The notes under the pieces: model-generated
What the model saw: the letters and a program-made list of their open reading frames with translations, nothing else
Databases searched by the model: none
Told to the model about the DNA's origin: nothing
In this document: piece after piece, positions 1-4,898 of the stretch
How positions within the stretch are numbered: position 1 is the stretch's first letter
Layout of the letters: each line of letters begins with the position of its first letter
Translations under genes and position numbers: made by a program
From: a virus
Taxonomy: Duplodnaviria; Heunggongvirae; Uroviricota; Caudoviricetes
Reading direction: 5' to 3' (one strand)
IMG/VR virus record: IMGVR_UViG_2778261453_000012
Length of the DNA: 4,898 nucleotides

Positions 1-584
1 GATACTGCCTCAGGTAATGCGTCCACCACCTGATTGCAGACTGCCCACCAGGATAATTCAGCCAGCGATAATTCCCGCTCCTGCGTGCCATTCATTACAT
101 GGCGTATGACGTCAATCATCCAGGCTGTCAGATTTTGTTGAGTAAGTTGCTCAAGTGATTCGGAGGTCTGGTCGCGCAGCTGGTTGTCGCAGTGCCAGCA
201 CAACACCATTGCGCCAGCACCGTAACTGTGAATAACGGTTTCGCTGTGATGATAATCGCCGTGTGGCCACTGGCAGGATTTCACGTGACGTAATAACCAG
301 TCAGACAGTGCACCAGCGCCGCCAGCTGCACGAATCACCCGCTCATCGCTGAAAAATGGCAGCAGTGATTTATCTTCCGCCAGCGGCTGGCGAACAGTAG
401 GAACCGCTCCAGATGGCAGCGCCCGCATGTTTTTCGGTTCCGGCTCCACCAGCACCCTGCCGCGATGAAAAACTGGCAATGATTCACGACCGGGCTTAAG
501 GACCACCAGCCCGAGTTCCGGAACCAGAACAGGTCGAAGTAATACCCGCACATTACCTCCAGACGCGCTGACGGTAGCAGGCAT
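1..584 (-). CDS. Hypothetical protein, N-terminal 194 aa in window (3' end beyond left edge); contains a Cys/His cluster (C104, H108, H112, H113, C129, H131, C132), possibly Zn-binding/HNH-like; possibly the continuation of the 553..825 ORF after a frameshift
   Basis: Hand translation of the minus frame with codon at 582-584 (ATG): no TAA/TAG/TGA down to position 3. Begins MPATVSASGGNVRV..., includes ...RHVKSCQWPHGDYHHSETVIHSYGAGAMVLCWHCDNQ.... The frame is open upstream to a TGA at 636-638. Weak SD (GGA) before the ATG. Absent from the ORF track because there is no in-window stop. Confidence 0.45.
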   Translation of the reverse strand, partial: MPATVSASGGNVRVLLRPVLVPELGLVVLKPGRESLPVFHRGRVLVEPEPKNMRALPSGAVPTVRQPLAEDKSLLPFFSDERVIRAAGGAGALSDWLLRHVKSCQWPHGDYHHSETVIHSYGAGAMVLCWHCDNQLRDQTSESLEQLTQQNLTAWMIDVIRHVMNGTQERELSLAELSWWAVCNQVVDALPEAV

Positions 585-825
585 GTGTCCGTGGCAGATG
601 TGCACGAACAGGAAGATATACAGAAACGGTCCAGGTCAGACGATCAGCGTTCAGACTCCGCTCCACACGGACACCGCGACGCAGATACGCCTCTTGAAGC
701 ATATCTGCCTCATCGATCGTACAGAACAGATAGTGAAACCAGCCATACTGAGGCGCACGAAAACGCCTCCCCTGCTTAATTTCCGGGTCGGCTTCAGAAT
801 TGTGGGATTTTATGTGTTGTGTCAT
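553..825 (-). CDS. Hypothetical 90-aa protein, or the N-terminal part of a frameshifted larger gene that continues in the 1..584 frame
   Basis: ATG at 823-825 preceded by GGAG with 6-nt spacing (ccGGAGaatccgATG) and by a candidate promoter. Translation MTQHIKSHNSEADPEIKQGRRFRAPQYGWFHYLFCTIDEADMLQEAYLRRGVRV... is protein-like at the N-terminus. Confidence 0.45.
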   Translation of the reverse strand: MTQHIKSHNSEADPEIKQGRRFRAPQYGWFHYLFCTIDEADMLQEAYLRRGVRVERSLNADRLTWTVSVYLPVRAHLPRTHACYRQRVWR

Positions 826-874
826 CGGATTCTCCGGTGACAGCAGGTGTCAGTTGTTCAGGCTGACTGCGCGA

Positions 875-903
875 ATTGTAAGGCAATACGCCGGAATGTA
901 CAA
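875..903 (-). promoter_or_regulatory. Candidate sigma70 promoter for the 553..825 gene: -35 TTGTAC (903..898), 17-nt spacer, -10 TACAAT (880..875)
   Basis: Read directly on the minus strand: tTTGTACattccggcgtattgcctTACAATtcgcg. The -10 is a 5/6 match to TATAAT; it sits about 50 nt upstream of the ATG at 825. Confidence 0.35.
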
Positions 904-930
904 ACAGAAAACCCGTCAGTAAGACGGGCT
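899..930 (-). terminator. Rho-independent terminator downstream of the BOF-family gene
   Basis: Minus strand: CCCGTC-ttact-GACGGG (plus 912-928) followed immediately by TTTTCTGTTTGT. A 6-bp GC-rich stem with U-tract, 19 nt after the stop at 947. Confidence 0.6.
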
Positions 931-946
931 TAACAAGCAGGGGCGG

Positions 947-1291
947 TTACTTTAATAATTTCAGTGCCTTTACATCAACTTCAACACTGCTCAGGTCTTT
1001 ATCAATTTCACCCTCAATTCTTACTTTGTCTTTCGGAGAAACATTCTGCCCGGCCCATACGCTGTCATCAATATCCGTGACAATTGTCCCGCTATTGTCA
1101 CGAAACTCATAACGTTCATCACCCACTTTTTTAACGATGCTCCCTTCAAGGATAACCCATGCATCATCCTTCAGTTCTTTTGCCTGCGCTACTGTTGAAC
1201 GCTCTGCTTCTGGCCCCTGGAAACCACCCTGCTGTGCAAAAGCGCCAAAAGACACACCGGAAATAAGTGCTGCAATCAATACCTTTTTCAT
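947..1291 (-). CDS. YgiW/YdeI (BOF, bacterial OB-fold) family periplasmic protein, 114 aa, with N-terminal signal peptide
   Basis: MKKVLIAALISGVSFGAFA|QQGGF...: typical Sec signal with AxA cleavage site, then the QGGF start characteristic of mature BOF proteins, and a C-terminal motif ...DKVRIEGEIDKDLSSVEVDVKALKLLK. SD AGAGGA 7 nt before the ATG. Confidence 0.8.
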   Translation of the reverse strand: MKKVLIAALISGVSFGAFAQQGGFQGPEAERSTVAQAKELKDDAWVILEGSIVKKVGDERYEFRDNSGTIVTDIDDSVWAGQNVSPKDKVRIEGEIDKDLSSVEVDVKALKLLK

Positions 1292-1348
1292 TCATAGTCC
1301 TCTTTCAGAGATGAACATTCAAACAGCATTTTCAGTATGGTAAAGCGC

Positions 1349-1403
1349 GGGTGCGTTGAGGATGCCTGACACATCAGAGGTGGCGGGAGATTACTCCCCC
1401 GCC
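1349..1403 (-). promoter_or_regulatory. 3' elements of the hok transcript: fbi-like box (1349-1361, CCUCAACGCACCC on the RNA) and a 3' stem-loop (1382-1403)
   Basis: The fbi-like box is complementary to the predicted mRNA 5' end GGGUGCUUGAGG (plus 1724-1735), 12 bp with one bulged C. The stem-loop GGCGGGGGAG-uaau-CUCCCGCC lies just after the hok stop and has no U-tract, so it is not a classic terminator. Confidence 0.45.
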
Positions 1404-1410
1404 TGGTCTC

Positions 1411-1566
1411 TTACTTCTCAGATTCGTAGTCTACGAAGACAGCGACCTCCGTCTGACCGGTTCGGATTCGCACCTCGCAGAGGTCTTTCCTCGTTACCAG
1501 TGCCGTCACTATGACGGTTAAACAGATGACGATCAGGGCGATTAACATCGCCTTTTGCTGCTTCAT
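1411..1566 (-). CDS. hokD: Hok/Gef family type I toxin (51 aa small membrane toxin), closest from memory to HokD/RelF
   Basis: MKQQKAMLIALIVICLTVIVTALVTRKDLCEVRIRTGQTEVAVFVDYESEK: hydrophobic TM segment followed by the conserved TRKDLCEV.IR.G..EVA.F motif of Hok proteins. SD AAGGAG about 8 nt upstream of the ATG at 1566. Confidence 0.85.
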   Translation of the reverse strand: MKQQKAMLIALIVICLTVIVTALVTRKDLCEVRIRTGQTEVAVFVDYESEK

Positions 1567-1623
1567 AGCCTGCTTCTCCTTGCCTTTCGGCACGTAAGAG
1601 GCTAACCTACATGTGTTCAGCAT
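1411..1623 (-). CDS. Mok-like leader reading frame (70 aa), in-frame N-terminal extension of hok starting 19 codons upstream
   Basis: ATG at 1621-1623 with upstream AGG (ctgAGGctcaatccATG). Extension MLNTCRLASYVPKGKEKQA precedes the hok Met. No start codon exists in the alternative frame that is open across hok. Confidence 0.4.
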   Translation of the reverse strand: MLNTCRLASYVPKGKEKQAMKQQKAMLIALIVICLTVIVTALVTRKDLCEVRIRTGQTEVAVFVDYESEK

Positions 1624-1692
1624 GGATTGAGCCTCAGATTAATGTTAAGCGTCTTGCAGGACGCGTAATGTTAACTGGGGCTTTTCTCTATC
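1615..1692 (+). ncRNA. Candidate Sok-like antisense RNA (about 70-80 nt), antisense to the hok leader and mok start
   Basis: Plus-strand candidate promoter -35 TTGCCT (1580-1585), 17-nt spacer, -10 TAACCT (1603-1608). Downstream imperfect inverted repeat 1633-1680 (outer stem CCTCAG/CTGGGG, inner GCGTC-ttgcag-GACGC, flanked by 9-bp direct repeats TAATGTTAA) followed by CTTTTCTCT. Position and length match what is expected for Sok. The -10 is weak. Confidence 0.35.
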
Positions 1693-1770
1693 TGCCGTTG
1701 GTGTTCATGCCCGAGGCAGATAGCCTCAAGCACCCGCAGCAATTCTACTTAACTATCCTTTTCCCGCAAA
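1688..1770 (-). promoter_or_regulatory. hok promoter and 5' leader: -35 TTGCGG (1769..1764), 16-nt spacer, -10 TAGAAT (1747..1742), predicted TSS near 1735, tac-like 5' box (1735..1724), leader stem with 9-bp perfect inverted repeat (1688-1696 / 1715-1723)
   Basis: Elements read directly from the sequence. The predicted transcript 5' end GGGUGCUUGAGGCUAUCUGCC resembles my memory of the R1 hok mRNA 5' end (GGCGCUUGAGGCUUUCUGCC). Confidence 0.45.
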
Positions 1771-1856
1771 CCGTTTTTATCCCCAGCGGCAAATCGAATA
1801 CACCACCAGCGCCACCGCCATCGCAATTCCTACCGTTGTGAATGCTTCAGGCCAGG

Positions 1857-2414
1857 TCATTGATTCACCTCCTGCGGCGGTTCTGGTAGCGACATCCAGT
1901 GGGTTGCTTGCCTAAGATCATTACCCGGACTAACTGCTATACCTCCGCGCCGGAACGTGCCTCCGAGATAGCGTGCGGAATATATTAATGGCCCAGCCTC
2001 GCTATCGATATTCATCGAAATAAGCACGTTCTGGCTCTTTTCAGGCATTCGCTCAGTACAGCTTATCCAGCCATCCAGAGTTATCGGAGATCTGGTTGAC
2101 GTTTCCGAGATTTCCCGAAAATTGTTGGTTGACGAATTCTTATTTTCCCGAAAGTTTCCGGCCTGAAGCATGGCGACGCGGCAGGCGTTCCAGCCATCAG
2201 CATATGTTTTAGTTACACCGTCGAGATGGCAGGTAAGCAAATCCATTTCATCAGGCACTACCATTGCTATCGGCTCTGCTTCCAGTGATGCCAGCGCGAT
2301 ACGAAACACATTAGCCAGCAGGCTGTCTGAAGACTTGTTATCGTGCGCCGAGTCGCTCAGGAAGCCTGTGATGTATGATTTAATCTCCGCGCGTTCTCTG
2401 GTAATAGTGCTCAT
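1857..2414 (-). CDS. DUF551-type prophage protein, 185 aa (variable N-terminal domain plus C-terminal DUF551-like domain)
   Basis: C-terminal region ...DGWISCTERMPEKSQNVLISMN...ATHWMSLPEPPQEV matches the W-I-S-x-x-E-R-(L/M)-P-E ... T-H-W-M-P-L-P-E-P-P signature I recall for DUF551. ATG at 2412-2414 is one nt after the stop of the upstream gene, with AAGGA inside that gene's 3' end. Confidence 0.75.
   Translation of the reverse strand: MSTITRERAEIKSYITGFLSDSAHDNKSSDSLLANVFRIALASLEAEPIAMVVPDEMDLLTCHLDGVTKTYADGWNACRVAMLQAGNFRENKNSSTNNFREISETSTRSPITLDGWISCTERMPEKSQNVLISMNIDSEAGPLIYSARYLGGTFRRGGIAVSPGNDLRQATHWMSLPEPPQEVNQ
2094..2159 (-). repeat. Imperfect tandem duplication of a 33-bp (11-codon) unit inside the DUF551-protein gene
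   Basis: ggttgacg at 2094-2101 and again at 2127-2134; tttcccgaaa at 2111-2120 and 2144-2153. Protein-level repeat NFRENKNSSTN / NFREISETSTR in the inter-domain linker. Confidence 0.55.
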
Positions 2415-2415
2415 A

Positions 2416-2634
2416 TCAGTTTTCCTTATACGGATTAATTTTATTGTGCAGTGCGCTGAATGATTCCCATGTCACATCGGTATATAGCTCAATAACTGGT
2501 TCAAATGTCCTTCCAATTATCCAGACCAGTAATAGCGGGGATATCGGTATCATCAACACTATAAACAGAATGAAAAACAGAAACTCTGTTGTTCTGCTCT
2601 TTCGTGGGTAATTTTTTTCTAAATAATGTTTCAT
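2416..2634 (-). CDS. Small hydrophobic membrane protein, 72 aa, function unknown
   Basis: MKHYLEKNYPRKSRTTEFLFFILFIVLMIPISPLLLVWIIGRTF...: basic N-terminus followed by a ~25-residue hydrophobic segment. Sits in an AT-rich islet (about 36% GC by eye) and is translationally coupled to the downstream DUF551 gene. Confidence 0.6.
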   Translation of the reverse strand: MKHYLEKNYPRKSRTTEFLFFILFIVLMIPISPLLLVWIIGRTFEPVIELYTDVTWESFSALHNKINPYKEN

Positions 2635-2640
2635 TTCTTA

Positions 2641-2662
2641 CCGCCCTTTCGGGCGGCCTCCT
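2641..2662 (-). promoter_or_regulatory. Structured translation-initiation region: perfect SD AGGAGG (2662..2657) separated from the ATG (2634) by a 6-bp GC stem with GAAA tetraloop (2656..2641)
   Basis: Minus strand: catcAGGAGG-CCGCCC-GAAA-GGGCGG-taagaaATG. The SD is 22 nt from the ATG in linear sequence, about 6 nt if the hairpin is folded. No U-tract on either strand, so not a terminator. Confidence 0.4.
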
Positions 2663-2761
2663 GATGTTCTGAGGGTGCAGGAATCCCTCCGGTTAAGGAT
2701 TTAATAAAAATCGTTTCTGATTTAAATCTTCAGTATTTAGTTGTTAGTTGGTTTATCGCCT

Positions 2762-3073
2762 TTATGCTTCAGCCTTATTTCGCAACCAGACACAAACCGG
2801 GCCATCTTCCGTATCATGAATGGAACCAATAAACCAGCCATCGCCCTCTGGTCGTTCCGGTTCCCATGCAGAAATATCAGCATCACACGCATCAAGGTCA
2901 GCACATCCTTCATCTCTGAAGCAGAGGACGTATTGAAGATTATTTTCCTCCATCCAGGCGTTAAACTCTTCCGTTGAAATATATTCCCGACCATCACAGA
3001 ATTTTTCATATTCAGGATGTGTCCAGTAGCCATATCCGTCACGAACTACCGGCATTTCTTTAATTTCACTCAC
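2762..3073 (-). CDS. Hypothetical acidic protein, 103 aa
   Basis: GTG start at 3071-3073 preceded by perfect SD (gcAGGAGGttaacaGTG); overlaps the upstream stop by 8 nt. Sequence VSEIKEMPVVRDGYGYWTHPEYEKFCDGREY... is D/E-rich. An internal ATG at 3053-3055 is an alternative start. Confidence 0.65.
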   Translation of the reverse strand: MSEIKEMPVVRDGYGYWTHPEYEKFCDGREYISTEEFNAWMEENNLQYVLCFRDEGCADLDACDADISAWEPERPEGDGWFIGSIHDTEDGPVCVWLRNKAEA

Positions 3074-3293
3074 TGTTAACCTCCTGCAACGCTACACGAT
3101 ACGCCTTCTTTATCCACGCCTTACTGCCATATAATTTCGTCTTCATAATAAACACACCTGCACGACTCGCCGATATCCCCGGACAGGTTAACAGCACAGC
3201 ATCCACCACACGGTTATGCTTCCGAAACTCCATTACAGTACTGCTGATAACCACCTGCCCCACCGGGCCGTAATCCTGATACAGGATTTTCAC
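3066..3293 (-). CDS. Hypothetical protein, 75 aa
   Basis: GTG start at 3291-3293 preceded by AGGAGG with 8-nt spacing; start overlaps the upstream TGA (GTGA overlap), indicating translational coupling. Confidence 0.55.
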   Translation of the reverse strand: MKILYQDYGPVGQVVISSTVMEFRKHNRVVDAVLLTCPGISASRAGVFIMKTKLYGSKAWIKKAYRVALQEVNSE

Positions 3294-3571
3294 GCAGACA
3301 CCCTCCTGTCGAAATAAACGTAGTTATTCACTATGCGCAGCGGCATGCCTAATTTTCTGGCAATTTCCCTTCTTTGCATGCCTCTCTGATGCAGTTGCCG
3401 CGCCAGCTCAATATCACGCTGAGAATATTTTGCCAACGGGTGAAAATCACCACGTAACATCATGCTGATGCCCAGCTCCCGTGCCTTCGTTCTCACTGCC
3501 GCTTCAGTTCGTCCGATAAGTGCGCCAACGCTTTTTACCTTCATCGTTCCCGCACACTGCCGGAGTATCAT
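3290..3571 (-). CDS. Putative helix-turn-helix DNA-binding protein, about 85-93 aa (start ambiguous: ATG 3571 or ATG 3544)
   Basis: Two HTH-like segments: KSVGALIGRTEAAVRTKARELGIS and YSQRDIELARQLHQRGMQRREIARKLGMPLRIV. The track's longer form begins with GTG at 3694 inside the upstream gene; I prefer an internal ATG downstream of the upstream stop at 3604. Confidence 0.55.
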   Translation of the reverse strand: MILRQCAGTMKVKSVGALIGRTEAAVRTKARELGISMMLRGDFHPLAKYSQRDIELARQLHQRGMQRREIARKLGMPLRIVNNYVYFDRRVSA

Positions 3572-3603
3572 GATTTCCGCCCGGCACCACGTCTTCCACC
3601 CAC

Positions 3604-4266
3604 TCACCGCTGCTGTTCTCTGGTGGCGGTAATATCCCGGAGAATATCCCGGCACTTGTTCAGCTCCCGCAGCGCGGCGCAGACTCGCTCCCACTTCTGA
3701 ACCTGACCTTTTGCCCGGCGCAGCTCGCGGTTAGCCACATGCAGCGATGGTAAAATCAGACCATCCGGATGCTTTCTGGTGAACGACGGCTGTGACTGCA
3801 CTGTGACCGCCACACTTTCCGTTTTTATTTCTTCCTGTGTTTCCGCTTCCCCGACTGGTAACGCAACACCTGCTGGCTGAGGAAAGGCTTTACCATCCGT
3901 TTCCGTTATGGATGCGGCTTTCGGCTCTGCCGGTAAATCAGCGCCCGGTATGCAGTACCGAAATTTACCGCCCTGATTCACGCGAATCAGACGCCCTTTG
4001 CTGATTGCCATGGCCAGTGATGAATTCGCCCGGCGGGAGGTAATCCCGAACATCAGTGCCAGCTCATCCGCCGTTTGTGGGCCATGATGTTCAATCGCCT
4101 CAGTCAGCATTTGCGCTGTCACTTTCGGTACCGGTGACACTGGTTCACTTTCACCAGCCTGAATCAGCCACCACATCGAACCCTTGTTATCCGCTTCACC
4201 ACGGCGCTTCAGTTTCCACAGTTCGTTGACAGCATCTTCGCGGCTGATTCCAAGGCGCGATGCCAC
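3604..4266 (-). CDS. Hypothetical winged-helix-like DNA-binding protein, 220 aa (start uncertain: GTG 4266 overlapping the DnaC-like stop, or internal ATG near 4176 with AAGG SD)
   Basis: Segments [21 protein letters not shown] and [39 protein letters not shown] look like winged-helix motifs; the C-terminus is charged and helical-looking ([31 protein letters not shown]). Confidence 0.6.
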
Positions 4267-4697
4267 TACACGCTCATGACATCAGACACGGTGACGATAA
4301 TCACGCTGCGCCCCTTCGCCATCAGCCGGTTACCCATCGCCGCTGCAAGGTGATTTTTCCCGGTGCCGGTTTTACCGCTGAACACAAAATTCGTGCACCC
4401 GGTCATCAGTTCGTCAGCTATGGATTTGGCCTGGCTCAGCGCGTATTTTTGCCCGTCGTTCTGCACCTGATAATTCGCAAACGAGCATTTGCTGTGCAGA
4501 GGCTGGATGCCCGAACGATTCAGGATTTTTTCCACCCGCAACTGGTGATTCTGGCGGTTAATCTCCTCGCTGCGTTTTCGTCCTTCAACAAGTTGCCATT
4601 CCCGCCACTCCTCCACCGTCCGGTACGGTGGAACCGACGCCTGTGGTGCAAGTCTGCGAATACGTTCAAGAACCCCGGCTGCCGCAATGTTTTTCAT
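4266..4697 (-). CDS. DnaC-family replicative helicase loader homologue, truncated: 143 aa covering the N-terminal region and Walker A only
   Basis: ...[73 protein letters not shown] aligns to E. coli DnaC (NCSFENY...[18 protein letters not shown]...GKSVLIITVADIMSAM) as I remember it. The ORF ends with TAG where DnaC continues about 100 more residues (Walker B DLLVIDE absent). SD AGGGGG upstream. Confidence 0.75.
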
Positions 4698-4703
4698 GCC
4701 ACA

Positions 4704-4898
4704 TCACCCCCTGAATCCCGGCGGAATTTCGGTATCCGGTTCAGAAATATGATTCACACAACGCTGGTTGTTCGTGCCGCTTACCGGGAGCAACCAGGGG
4801 TTTTCAAAATTCCGGTCCGGCCCAAAAAACGTCGTCGCTCGCTGAACAAATTCCGTTCCCGTTTTCCCGGTAGCCGCCAGGTATCTTGCGTAACGCCT
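4704..4898 (-). CDS. 3' end (C-terminal 64 aa) of an upstream replication-module gene, partial at the window edge
   Basis: Hand translation of the minus frame from 4898: RRYARYLAATGKTGTEFVQRATTFFGPDRNFENPWLLPVSGTNNQRCVNHISEPDTEIPPGFRG*, stop TGA at 4704-4706, 6 nt before the DnaC-like ATG. Function inferred only from position. Confidence 0.45.
   Translation of the reverse strand, partial: RRYARYLAATGKTGTEFVQRATTFFGPDRNFENPWLLPVSGTNNQRCVNHISEPDTEIPPGFRG

Follow-up and report, generated by a model that had tools for sequence, protein, structure and literature searches.

The four genes at positions 2762 to 4266 of the window (the whole stretch of 4,898 nucleotides analysed here) are very probably ordinary accessory early genes of a decaying lambda-like E. 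coli prophage, that is, four independently shuffled genes of uncharacterised function. A 391-bp deletion took away the start of the first of them and destroyed the adjacent replication gene as well. The features of the region are collected in Table 1. RefSeq and PHROGs already list all four proteins, and Pfam has one as DUF1627, in each case with no experimentally defined role; in this sense the earlier note, which called them unrecognised, was right. PHROG matches are strong for all four (phrog_630, phrog_323, phrog_1001 and phrog_1372, E 5.5e-23 to 2.5e-118), and these families are labelled 'unknown function' in three cases and 'transcriptional regulator' in the case of phrog_323. The three downstream genes (93, 75 and 103 aa) are identical to RefSeq annotation (WP_042353845, WP_000699809 and WP_000034815), and hundreds of STEC genomes carry the four as hypothetical prophage proteins. 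No publication turned up in a literature search with the RefSeq accessions and PHROG identifiers. Purifying selection acts on each of the four families (median dN/dS 0.13-0.32). Several other observations of the earlier note are in accordance with our results: the four consecutive minus-strand reading frames are present, two of them have GTG starts behind AGGAGG, there are real, conserved overlaps at 3290-3293 (GTGA) and 3066-3073 (8 nt), the 103-aa protein is acidic, and the HTH protein put at about 90 aa has 93 residues and weak HTH matches. Two DNA-binding proteins among the four, the HTH and the winged-helix-like one, are plausible, and searches of Pfam and NCBIfam gave no match to the canonical nin-region genes NinB/Orf, NinG/Rap, RusA or NinH.

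Table 1. Features of the four-gene interval and its upstream neighbour (positions in the window).
Feature	Position	Strand	Remarks
103-aa acidic protein (pI 4.1), phrog_1372	2762..3073	-	GTG start 6 nt after AGGAGG; 8-nt overlap with 75-aa gene
75-aa basic protein (pI 9.8), phrog_1001	3066..3293	-	GTG start overlaps TGA of HTH gene (GTGA), 8 nt after AGGAGG
93-aa HTH protein, very basic (pI 11.3)	3290..3571	-	RefSeq 'DNA-binding protein', WP_042353845 family; starts 32 nt past DUF1627 stop
DUF1627/YdaW-family gene remnant, 5'-truncated	3604..4266	-	220 aa, codons 19-238 of a 238-aa gene
DnaC-like (YdaV-type, IstB-like AAA+) helicase loader, 3'-truncated	4266..4697	-	143 of 248 codons kept; TAG created at junction
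Deletion junction	4267..4269	.	391 bp absent relative to intact prophages; breakpoints ambiguous by 2-bp microhomology (GT, gene sense)

The interval very probably belongs to the delayed-early rightward operon of a Rac/Sp-type lambdoid E. coli prophage, with the order Cro/YdaS, YdaT, YdaU, DnaC-like YdaV, DUF1627/YdaW, accessory genes, hok/sok, DUF968, RusA and Q. Its four reading frames are very probably separate mosaic units, namely DUF1627/YdaW, a small basic HTH protein, a 75-aa ferredoxin/ACT-like protein and a 103-aa acidic protein with a His/Cys quartet, which recombination swaps at gene boundaries. By its position directly after the helicase loader, DUF1627/YdaW goes with the replication module. 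The four genes are probably transcribed through read-through from the early promoter, and the downstream ones probably translated through ordinary stop-start coupling. A search of 2300-4898 gave neither a promoter-like site on the coding strand nor a terminator-like one, and the sole match to Rfam was the expected sok RNA, outside the four-gene interval. For the two basic HTH-type proteins DNA binding is the most likely activity, and the two small proteins most likely act singly, by binding a host or a phage partner.

Against intact prophages the window aligns at 99.9% identity in two blocks, which span 5,289 bp there as compared with 4,898 bp here. In the alignment to one intact prophage (L001), window positions 1-4269 correspond to 6001-10269 and positions 4268-4898 to 10659-11289. 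The segment that was removed carried loader residues 144-248, the 21-nt intergenic spacer that contains GGAGG, and codons 1 to 17 of the 238-aa DUF1627 gene, and the sequence across the junction reads ...ATGAGCGTGTAGTGGCATCG.... A search with the junction 50-mer gave no match in the GTDB representative genomes or in IMG/VR. The 391-bp loss is an illegitimate deletion with 2-bp microhomology, and the window holds a degraded copy. The apparent overlap of a TAG and a GTG at 4266, previously taken for translational coupling, is therefore a by-product of this deletion. An origin of the deletion mediated by insertion sequences was considered and found no support: O145 strains carry an independent IS3-family insertion in the loader gene, and it lies at about codon 30, away from the breakpoints, although contigs of two assemblies do break at the junction.

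Since the deletion took the start of the DUF1627 gene, the "220-aa gene" is a remnant without a start of its own; a reading frame of that length exists, as the earlier note had it, but not the winged-helix-like gene in complete form. In the intact gene TTGGAGGACGTTTTAATG precedes the start, while the window copy is devoid of a Shine-Dalgarno sequence. The ATG and the ribosome-binding site GGAGG are missing from it, its N-terminal winged-helix-like domain is incomplete, and the first start codon that it could use is the GTG of codon 19, again with no Shine-Dalgarno sequence, so it does not qualify as a complete gene. Its family is clear: the Pfam DUF1627 profile (PF07789) scores 263.3 bits against a cutoff of 28.1 and is matched over positions 1-155 of 155, phrog_630 matches the intact protein over its full length, and phage records name the homologue 'putative YdaW family protein'. 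A PDB sequence search found no solved-structure relative. With its Pfam domain complete and a GTG overlapping the stop upstream, the remnant may still allow some re-initiation and yield a DUF1627 protein with part of its activity.

On the other side of the junction the loader remnant keeps its Walker A motif (GKTGTGKN), and the Pfam IstB_IS21 match to it covers only profile positions 40-132 of 238. The intact loader, 248 aa long, is annotated in L001 at 10342-11088. A complete AAA+ module, with Walker A, Walker B, sensor and arginine-finger regions, is absent from the remnant, as the Walker-B region (DLLVLDE in the intact protein) was deleted and the C-terminal 105 residues are gone. With its helicase loader lost, the prophage can presumably not drive its own replication, and the prophage lineage is probably replication-dead. 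One O103:H2 strain has an IS2 element in DUF4014 and a 75-aa gene shortened to 55 aa. Independent disruptions in this region, of the loader in O145 and of accessory genes in O103:H2, fit prophage domestication in STEC.

We surveyed the gene neighbourhoods at the 80 closest matches per query in one viral collection, mostly enterobacterial prophages, so all co-occurrence frequencies below are biased toward close relatives. Among these closest 80, loci anchored on the 103-aa gene held all four genes in 26 of 70 cases, only DUF1627 in 11 and none of the other three in 33; of those anchored on the 75-aa gene, 34 of 72 held all four, and 28 were distant homologues accompanied by none of the others. 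Within the same limit of 80 matches, the gene upstream of DUF1627 was a helicase loader in 71/72 loci (DnaC-type in 26, Phage_lambda_P-family in 45), and the gene downstream of it was the HTH gene in 56/79 and DUF977 in 21/79. The HTH gene, again among its 80 closest matches, had DUF1627 directly upstream in 65/72 loci and was followed by the 75-aa gene in 49/79 and by a DUF4406 gene in 30. The 103-aa gene keeps its 8-nt overlap also with another upstream gene, which encodes an 84-aa CxxC protein and itself comes after DUF977. The phylogenetic ranges of the four families differ as well. These neighbourhoods indicate that the four genes assort independently and that they form no conserved multi-gene unit across diverged phages.

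DUF1627 and the HTH gene are often adjacent, so a two-gene pairing is possible, as is cooperation between neighbouring genes in general. In a stronger form, DUF1627/YdaW and the 93-aa HTH protein would be a conserved DNA-binding pair on the replication module, which modulates replication or transcription or counters host defence (a retron, or Rex-like exclusion) in the manner of ren, with the 75-aa and 103-aa genes as passengers. We regard this as rather unlikely. The position of DUF1627 after the helicase loader, whichever family the loader belongs to, and its place immediately upstream of the HTH gene speak in its favour, and so do a weak match to phrog_142 ('Ren-like exclusion protein', E 5e-4) and the presence of ydaW among the listed blockers of the retron-Sen2 toxin: a fragment of ydaW from Rac, when over-expressed, is reported to block this toxin (bioRxiv 10.1101/2020.06.22.160242). 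However, DUF977 stands in place of the HTH gene in 21/79 loci, the adjacency may simply reflect the close kinship of the sampled prophages, and the DUF1627 partner is truncated in the window. The phrog_142 match contains no stretch that passes independently, and no alignment came out at E<=100 when lambda Ren was compared by BLASTP with the DUF1627 protein in its intact form. Homology of DUF1627 to Ren was therefore dropped, and the positional analogy alone stands.

As for the HTH protein itself, the longest reading frame that contains its gene extends to 3694, the protein has weak HTH_7, HTH_23 and sigma70_r4 matches and a match to phrog_323 at E 5.5e-23, and dN/dS in its family is 0.20. Matches to TPR proteins in the solved-structure search had no passing stretch and were taken as compositional.

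It is also unlikely, in our estimate, that one of the two proteins without a family has a new anti-defence or host-takeover activity, for which the 103-aa protein is the stronger candidate, or that, separately, DUF1627/YdaW counters defence in association with the loader, whether as a functional analogue of Ren or by blocking retrons. Of the four candidate zinc ligands in the 103-aa family, H19, H86 and C94 never vary and C26 is kept in 47 of 48 sequences, and the family reaches phages of Burkholderia, Pseudomonas and Vibrio. The protein matched no metal-binding family, had no fold match in PDB, and its profile found no solved-structure relative by sequence. It might be a small metal-stabilised inhibitor or a DNA mimic. 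A relation to the nearby DUF551 domain, suggested by the W/P/G-rich C-terminus of the protein, was rejected at an hhalign probability of 0.09. The anti-defence idea for this protein draws on the His/Cys quartet, the lack of a fold match in PDB and the spread over temperate phages, and neither this idea nor the one for DUF1627 needs a four-gene cassette.

Such a cassette was the main claim of the earlier note, according to which the four genes are one co-evolved, translationally coupled module of two DNA-binding proteins and two small effectors, serving as a regulatory switch, an anti-repressor module or a defence/exclusion module. The same strand, the tight packing and the real overlaps at two junctions are what such a module would show, one common E. 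coli prophage lineage does carry the four together and in the same order (26-34 of about 70 loci among the closest matches), and the effect of the over-expressed ydaW fragment on the retron-Sen2 toxin points in the same direction. Nevertheless, we find the module very improbable. Each of the genes often occurs alone, and their slots are taken by the unrelated DUF977, DUF4406 and 84-aa CxxC protein; the 103-aa family extends to phages of Burkholderia, Pseudomonas and Vibrio, whereas the genes of the 75-aa family are located close to integrases in Stx, Fels-1 and Klebsiella phages; and the first 'coupling' is a deletion scar. The claim thus fails for want of conserved co-occurrence among the loci surveyed, the outcome that the note itself had named as refuting it. 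In phage operons stop and start codons overlap as a rule, which makes the two real overlaps nothing unusual by themselves. Nothing was found in support of a switch, an anti-repressor or a defence function either: PADLOC-DB v2 returned for the four proteins nothing but noise at E 0.02-0.03 with no passing stretch, so none of them is recognised as part of a catalogued defence system, and their NCBIfam matches were likewise sub-threshold noise.

The 75-aa and 103-aa proteins gave nothing significant in PADLOC, NCBIfam, PDB sequence searches or Pfam. The predicted fold of the 75-aa protein is a bb-a-bb-a sandwich of ferredoxin/ACT-like type, and its similarity to the ACT domain is confident at the level of the structural model. 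Identity to ACT, BMC and other ferredoxin-like sandwich domains is only 11-15% (13% to the ACT domain), and none of 21 family members has a Pfam hit, ACT and BMC included, so by sequence the protein is no member of the ACT family. The ferredoxin/ACT-like fold is very common, and a ligand-binding or shell-forming role cannot be inferred from it. An exhaustive search found 42 representatives of the family, where another homologue search gave 9 hits, mostly partial. The gene is almost always stop-start coupled to the gene upstream of it, and distant homologues near integrases have 4-nt overlaps with varying upstream genes.

This nearly constant coupling, and the fact that at 9 of the 28 distant loci the homologue follows, with a 4-nt overlap, a gene with a ParE_like toxin domain (PF24732), would be in accordance with a 75-aa protein that is an antitoxin-like partner of its upstream gene, in which case the HTH and 75-aa genes in the window would be a toxin-antitoxin-like pair. 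There is only a very small chance of this, as the upstream neighbour varies (ParE-like at 9 loci, a 188-aa protein at 10, a 211-aa, a 248-aa and other proteins elsewhere), in the window this place is taken by an HTH protein that bears no toxin signature, which leaves the pair outside the type II toxin-antitoxin systems, and the generic ferredoxin/ACT-like sandwich is no known antitoxin fold. The antitoxin role was rejected because of this variability of the upstream partner.

The junction at 4266-4269 is extremely unlikely to be an assembly artefact that conceals a genome with intact loader and DUF1627 genes, since, although the window is a whole contig of a draft assembly (of the short-read kind in which several related prophages could be confused), although the contigs of two further assemblies (GCA_023434805.1 and GCA_002006965.1) stop exactly at the junction, as if assemblers met a fork there, and although the junction 50-mer is found in 0 of 5,426 complete E. 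coli genomes, the identical junction is spanned by contigs of three different draft assemblies (GCA_002549675.1, GCA_012247705.1 and GCA_046054415.1), one of them 10.1 kb long, the homology at the joint is just 2 bp and far too short for a k-mer mis-join, and forks are expected if those two strains hold both alleles.

The reading of the interval as accessory genes of a decaying prophage is of little significance for new biology and its value is mainly corrective. A stop/start overlap seen in raw sequence may be a deletion scar, a gene such as the "220-aa gene" may be the remnant of a pseudogene, and close packing in a phage operon does not prove a functional cassette. The 103-aa protein, with its broad host range, His/Cys quartet and lack of a fold match, and the 75-aa protein, with its ACT-like fold, are low-priority candidates for screens of anti-defence or host-interaction activity.

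None of the four proteins has detectable sequence similarity to lambda Ren, NinB-NinI or other nin proteins, and the analogy to ren is one of position: DUF1627 occupies the same slot, immediately downstream of the loader in 71/72 loci among the closest 80. The interval as a whole has the same position as the nin region of lambda, between the replication module and RusA/Q (in the intact prophage RusA comes later, beyond the end of the window), and its genes are likewise small, overlapping, mosaic and non-essential-looking. The Rac prophage of E. coli K-12 (ydaS-ydaT-ydaU-ydaV-ydaW) and the STEC prophages share with the window the gene order Cro/YdaS, YdaT, YdaU-like, DnaC-like ATPase and DUF1627/YdaW, and Rac of K-12 presumably lacks the three genes downstream of ydaW. 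The closest known relatives are prophages of non-O157 STEC, for example that of O145:H28 RM12581 (NZ_CP007136, 2491377-2508665), which are 99.9% identical to the window and from which it differs in the 391-bp deletion truncating the loader and DUF1627.

In its best genome matches the window falls into two blocks that extend over 5,289 bp, not 4,898 bp. In direct alignment with an intact reference prophage region (L001), window 1-4269 corresponds to L001 6001-10269 and window 4268-4898 to L001 10659-11289. The offset of the two blocks in L001 means that the window lacks 391 bp, with a 2-bp GT microhomology at the joint. With this deletion the DnaC-like loader loses residues 144-248, among them the DLLVLDE Walker-B region, and its frame reads directly into a TAG created at the joint. 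Also gone are a 21-nt spacer with a GGAGG ribosome-binding site and, at the DUF1627 gene, the ATG and the first 17 codons. The GTG that overlaps the TAG at 4266, which the earlier note had read as translational coupling, corresponds to codon 19 (Val) in DUF1627, with no Shine-Dalgarno sequence before it. The supposed 220-aa winged-helix gene is therefore a remnant truncated at its 5' end, and what had looked like the first "coupling" is a deletion scar. The loader gene of the window copy is dead, which would leave the prophage unable to drive its own replication, and the DUF1627 remnant quite probably yields no protein. All four ORFs do have the coordinates first assigned to them, and the two downstream overlaps are genuine (see the table); the boundaries of the HTH, 75-aa and 103-aa genes are identical in RefSeq.

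Positions of the features discussed, in the window and in compared loci
Feature	Sequence	Position	Strand	Evidence or remark
Loader gene, truncated	window	4266-4697	minus	
DUF1627/YdaW remnant	window	3604-4266	minus	
HTH gene	window	3290-3571	minus	
75-aa gene	window	3066-3293	minus	
103-aa gene	window	2762-3073	minus	
GTGA overlap (HTH TGA, 75-aa GTG)	window	3290-3293	minus	AGGAGG 8 nt before
8-nt overlap (75-aa and 103-aa genes)	window	3066-3073	minus	AGGAGG 6 nt before GTG
DUF4014 leader hairpin	window	2641-2664	minus	GCCGCCC-GAAA-GGGCGGU
AGGAGG of DUF4014	window	2659-2664	minus	
ATG of DUF4014	window	2634	minus	
hok/sok type I toxin-antitoxin locus, complete	window	1411-1735	minus	RefSeq, Pfam, Rfam
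Hok/Gef ORF, 51 aa	window	1411-1566	minus	RefSeq CDS; Pfam HOK_GEF, 79.8 bits
sok antisense RNA	window	1561-1735		Rfam RF01794, 113.5 bits (gathering score 59)
YgiW/BOF-family OB-fold protein, 114 aa	window	947-1291	minus	Pfam BOF, 115 bits
90-aa protein	window	553-825	minus	phrog_1212 (unknown function), no Pfam match
IS3-family element in DnaC-like gene	L157 (NZ_CP035768)	5544-6757		O145 RM11626-C1
IS2 in DUF4014; shortened 75-aa gene	L158 (NZ_AP038987)	3142-4370 and 4902-5069		O103:H2 PV16-126
DUF977 gene, then 84-aa gene	L046	5335-6008		also in L031 and L057
ParE_like gene	L138	5783-6004		also in 8 other loci among L122-L149
112-aa LexA-family gene	L001	13304-13642	plus	

A probe of 50 nt, with the joint at its centre and flanks too short to match intact copies, gave 0 matches in 5,426 complete E. 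coli genomes, and a 40-mer gave none in GTDB representative genomes or IMG/VR. Searching for exact copies of the truncated products, we did locate the identical joint in two more draft assemblies, on a 10.1-kb contig of GCA_012247705.1 that is 100% identical across the shared 4,295 nt and on a contig of GCA_046054415.1. Contigs of 571 bp (GCA_023434805.1, L152) and 4,468 bp (GCA_002006965.1, L156) stop exactly at the joint, on opposite sides, which implies an assembly-graph fork there: in these strains either the intact and deleted alleles are both present or a repeat or IS element lies at the joint. Since a k-mer mis-join would need far more homology than 2 bp, we consider the deletion to be a real, rare and lineage-specific allele. 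The window's HTH variant is recorded on three contigs only, which fits a small clone. Independently of this deletion, in O145 strains an IS3-family element splits the loader gene near codon 30, and in an O103:H2 strain IS2 lies in DUF4014 and the 75-aa gene is cut to 55 aa. In this the region resembles a domesticated prophage in decay.

The four genes had been proposed to form a tightly coupled cassette. For each anchor gene we took a maximum of 80 loci from IMG/VR and placed the window proteins by tblastn, counting only loci with enough flanking DNA. Around the 103-aa gene (n = 70) all four genes were present in 26 loci, DUF1627 without either middle gene in 11, while the other three were absent from 33. 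Around the 75-aa gene (n = 72) all four were found in 34 loci, the 103-aa gene was missing in 10, and 28 were distant homologues (about 58% identity) without the others. Upstream of DUF1627 (n = 72) lay a DnaC-type loader in 26 loci and, in 45, a Phage_lambda_P-family protein of 220 aa (56 bits against a cutoff of 26); whichever family the helicase loader belongs to, DUF1627 goes with it. Downstream of DUF1627 (n = 79) were the HTH gene (56), DUF977 (21) or the 75-aa gene (2). The HTH gene in turn was preceded by DUF1627 in 65 of 72 loci, by DUF977 in six and by another gene in one, and followed by the 75-aa gene in 49 of 79 and by DUF4406 in 30. Where the 103-aa gene lacks its window neighbors, DUF977 and an 84-aa CxxC protein stand upstream with the same 8-nt overlap, which illustrates recombination at conserved gene-boundary sequences. 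The distant 75-aa homologues occur in integrase-proximal regions and overlap variable upstream genes by 4 nt, encoding a ParE_like toxin domain (9/28), a 188-aa protein (10/28) or others. Given such frequent solo occurrence and replaced neighbors, the conserved co-occurrence on which the earlier note had made the cassette depend is absent, and the arrangement is classic gene-boundary mosaicism. In deposited genomes the 75-aa family is found in Stx1 and Stx2 phages, Fels-1 and Klebsiella prophages, and the 103-aa family in phages of Yersinia (PY54), Erwinia, Pseudomonas, Vibrio and Burkholderia and in Escherichia phage D6, nearly every copy being labelled "hypothetical".

Two of these alternative neighborhoods have features of their own. 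The DUF977 protein has 140 aa (103 bits) and the 84-aa protein after it ends in CPFCGESL. The ParE_like genes (PF24732, 72 bits, 73-75 aa) belong to integrase-proximal loci of Salmonella/Klebsiella-type prophages, where together with the 75-aa homologue they could form an unrecognised toxin-partner pairing.

Every sizeable window ORF is on the minus strand. A prophage with 99.9% identity to the window is carried by hundreds of complete E. coli genomes, most of them non-O157 STEC (O145, O103, O111, O121). The window is the whole contig NOCO01000082.1 (4,898 bp) of draft assembly GCA_002549675.1, so both ends are assembly breakpoints, probably at the edges of sequence common to several lambdoid prophages of that genome; genomes with any window match have a median of 2 and a maximum of 13 matching places. 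In the intact copy of O145:H28 RM12581, a LexA-family gene (S24 peptidase) on the opposite strand is followed, in the direction of transcription, by genes for a Cro/CI-family regulator, a YdaT-family protein, a 364-aa hypothetical protein, the DnaC-like ATP-binding protein (248 aa), the DUF1627 protein (238 aa), a "DNA-binding protein" (93 aa), two hypothetical proteins (75 and 103 aa), DUF4014, DUF551, Hok, the YgiW/BOF-family protein, a 90-aa hypothetical protein, DUF968, RusA and Q. This order identifies the region as the early-right operon of a lambdoid prophage of the Rac type. On the repressor side, L001 has only a 112-aa "LexA family protein", apparently missing its DNA-binding N-terminal domain (its equivalent in locus L153 matches Peptidase_S24), and an exoribonuclease gene close by carries a frameshift, so that the "intact" copies, too, may be cryptic prophages.

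At the family level the four genes are real, with purifying selection in all of them (median dN/dS 0.32, 0.20, 0.16 and 0.13). The first belongs to DUF1627 by its domain (Pfam 263 bits; phrog_630 over the full length), the window gene being incomplete; the protein is basic (pI 9.3) and has sub-threshold winged-helix-type matches (AbiEi_4, HTH_Crp_2, a MarR-type PHROG) in two separate N-terminal regions. Homologues are labelled YdaW family in phage records. In the literature YdaW counts as a predicted transcription factor whose function is unknown (PMC9308461). A clone of ydaW from Rac was listed among the over-expression blockers of the retron-Sen2 toxin RcaT (bioRxiv 10.1101/2020.06.22.160242), and DUF1627 is listed with genes conserved close to the PasA and PasC sRNAs. 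The very basic HTH protein (pI 11.3) matches phrog_323, "transcriptional regulator", and weakly resolvase-type and sigma-r4-type HTH domains. When membership was tested, none of the four belonged to a canonical nin family, as had been supposed. The suggested defence module found no support, PADLOC and NCBIfam giving no significant match for any of the four proteins. Ren and a toxin-antitoxin pair were also tried as identities, and neither applied.

Window 2300-4898 showed neither a terminator-like site nor, on the coding strand, a promoter-like one. Read-through from the early-right promoter would transcribe the four genes, and ordinary stop-start coupling would serve translation of the distal ones. 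The DUF1627 and HTH proteins are predicted to bind DNA, the former being tied functionally, to judge by its position, to the replication module. The 75-aa and 103-aa products may act alone as small binding proteins, the latter perhaps metal-stabilised.

The distal genes also deserve mention. The YgiW/BOF protein has a signal-peptide-like N-terminus, and its gene, between hok/sok and DUF968, looks like a moron-type stress-tolerance gene. The 90-aa gene sits between DUF968 and the BOF and hok genes, a position presumably held by rem in the K-12 Qin prophage. Between the AGGAGG and the start of DUF4014 is a stable hairpin; with its 59-nt context it has a folding energy of -17.4 kcal/mol (z = -2.7), equalled by none of 200 shuffles. 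Unless shortened by the hairpin, the distance from the SD to the start would be 24 nt. The hairpin could also be an RNA-stability or processing element.

The four proteins and the deletion allele are already in public databases as hypothetical proteins, and it seems improbable that a new anti-defence or host-interaction activity is hidden in the 103-aa or 75-aa family or in DUF1627. What we describe is already known and unexceptional, a group of mosaic early-operon genes within a replication-dead prophage. Nearest to it among known systems come the Rac ydaS-ydaW operon and the STEC prophages of near-identical sequence, and by analogy the nin region of lambda with ren, whose slot is the one taken by DUF1627.
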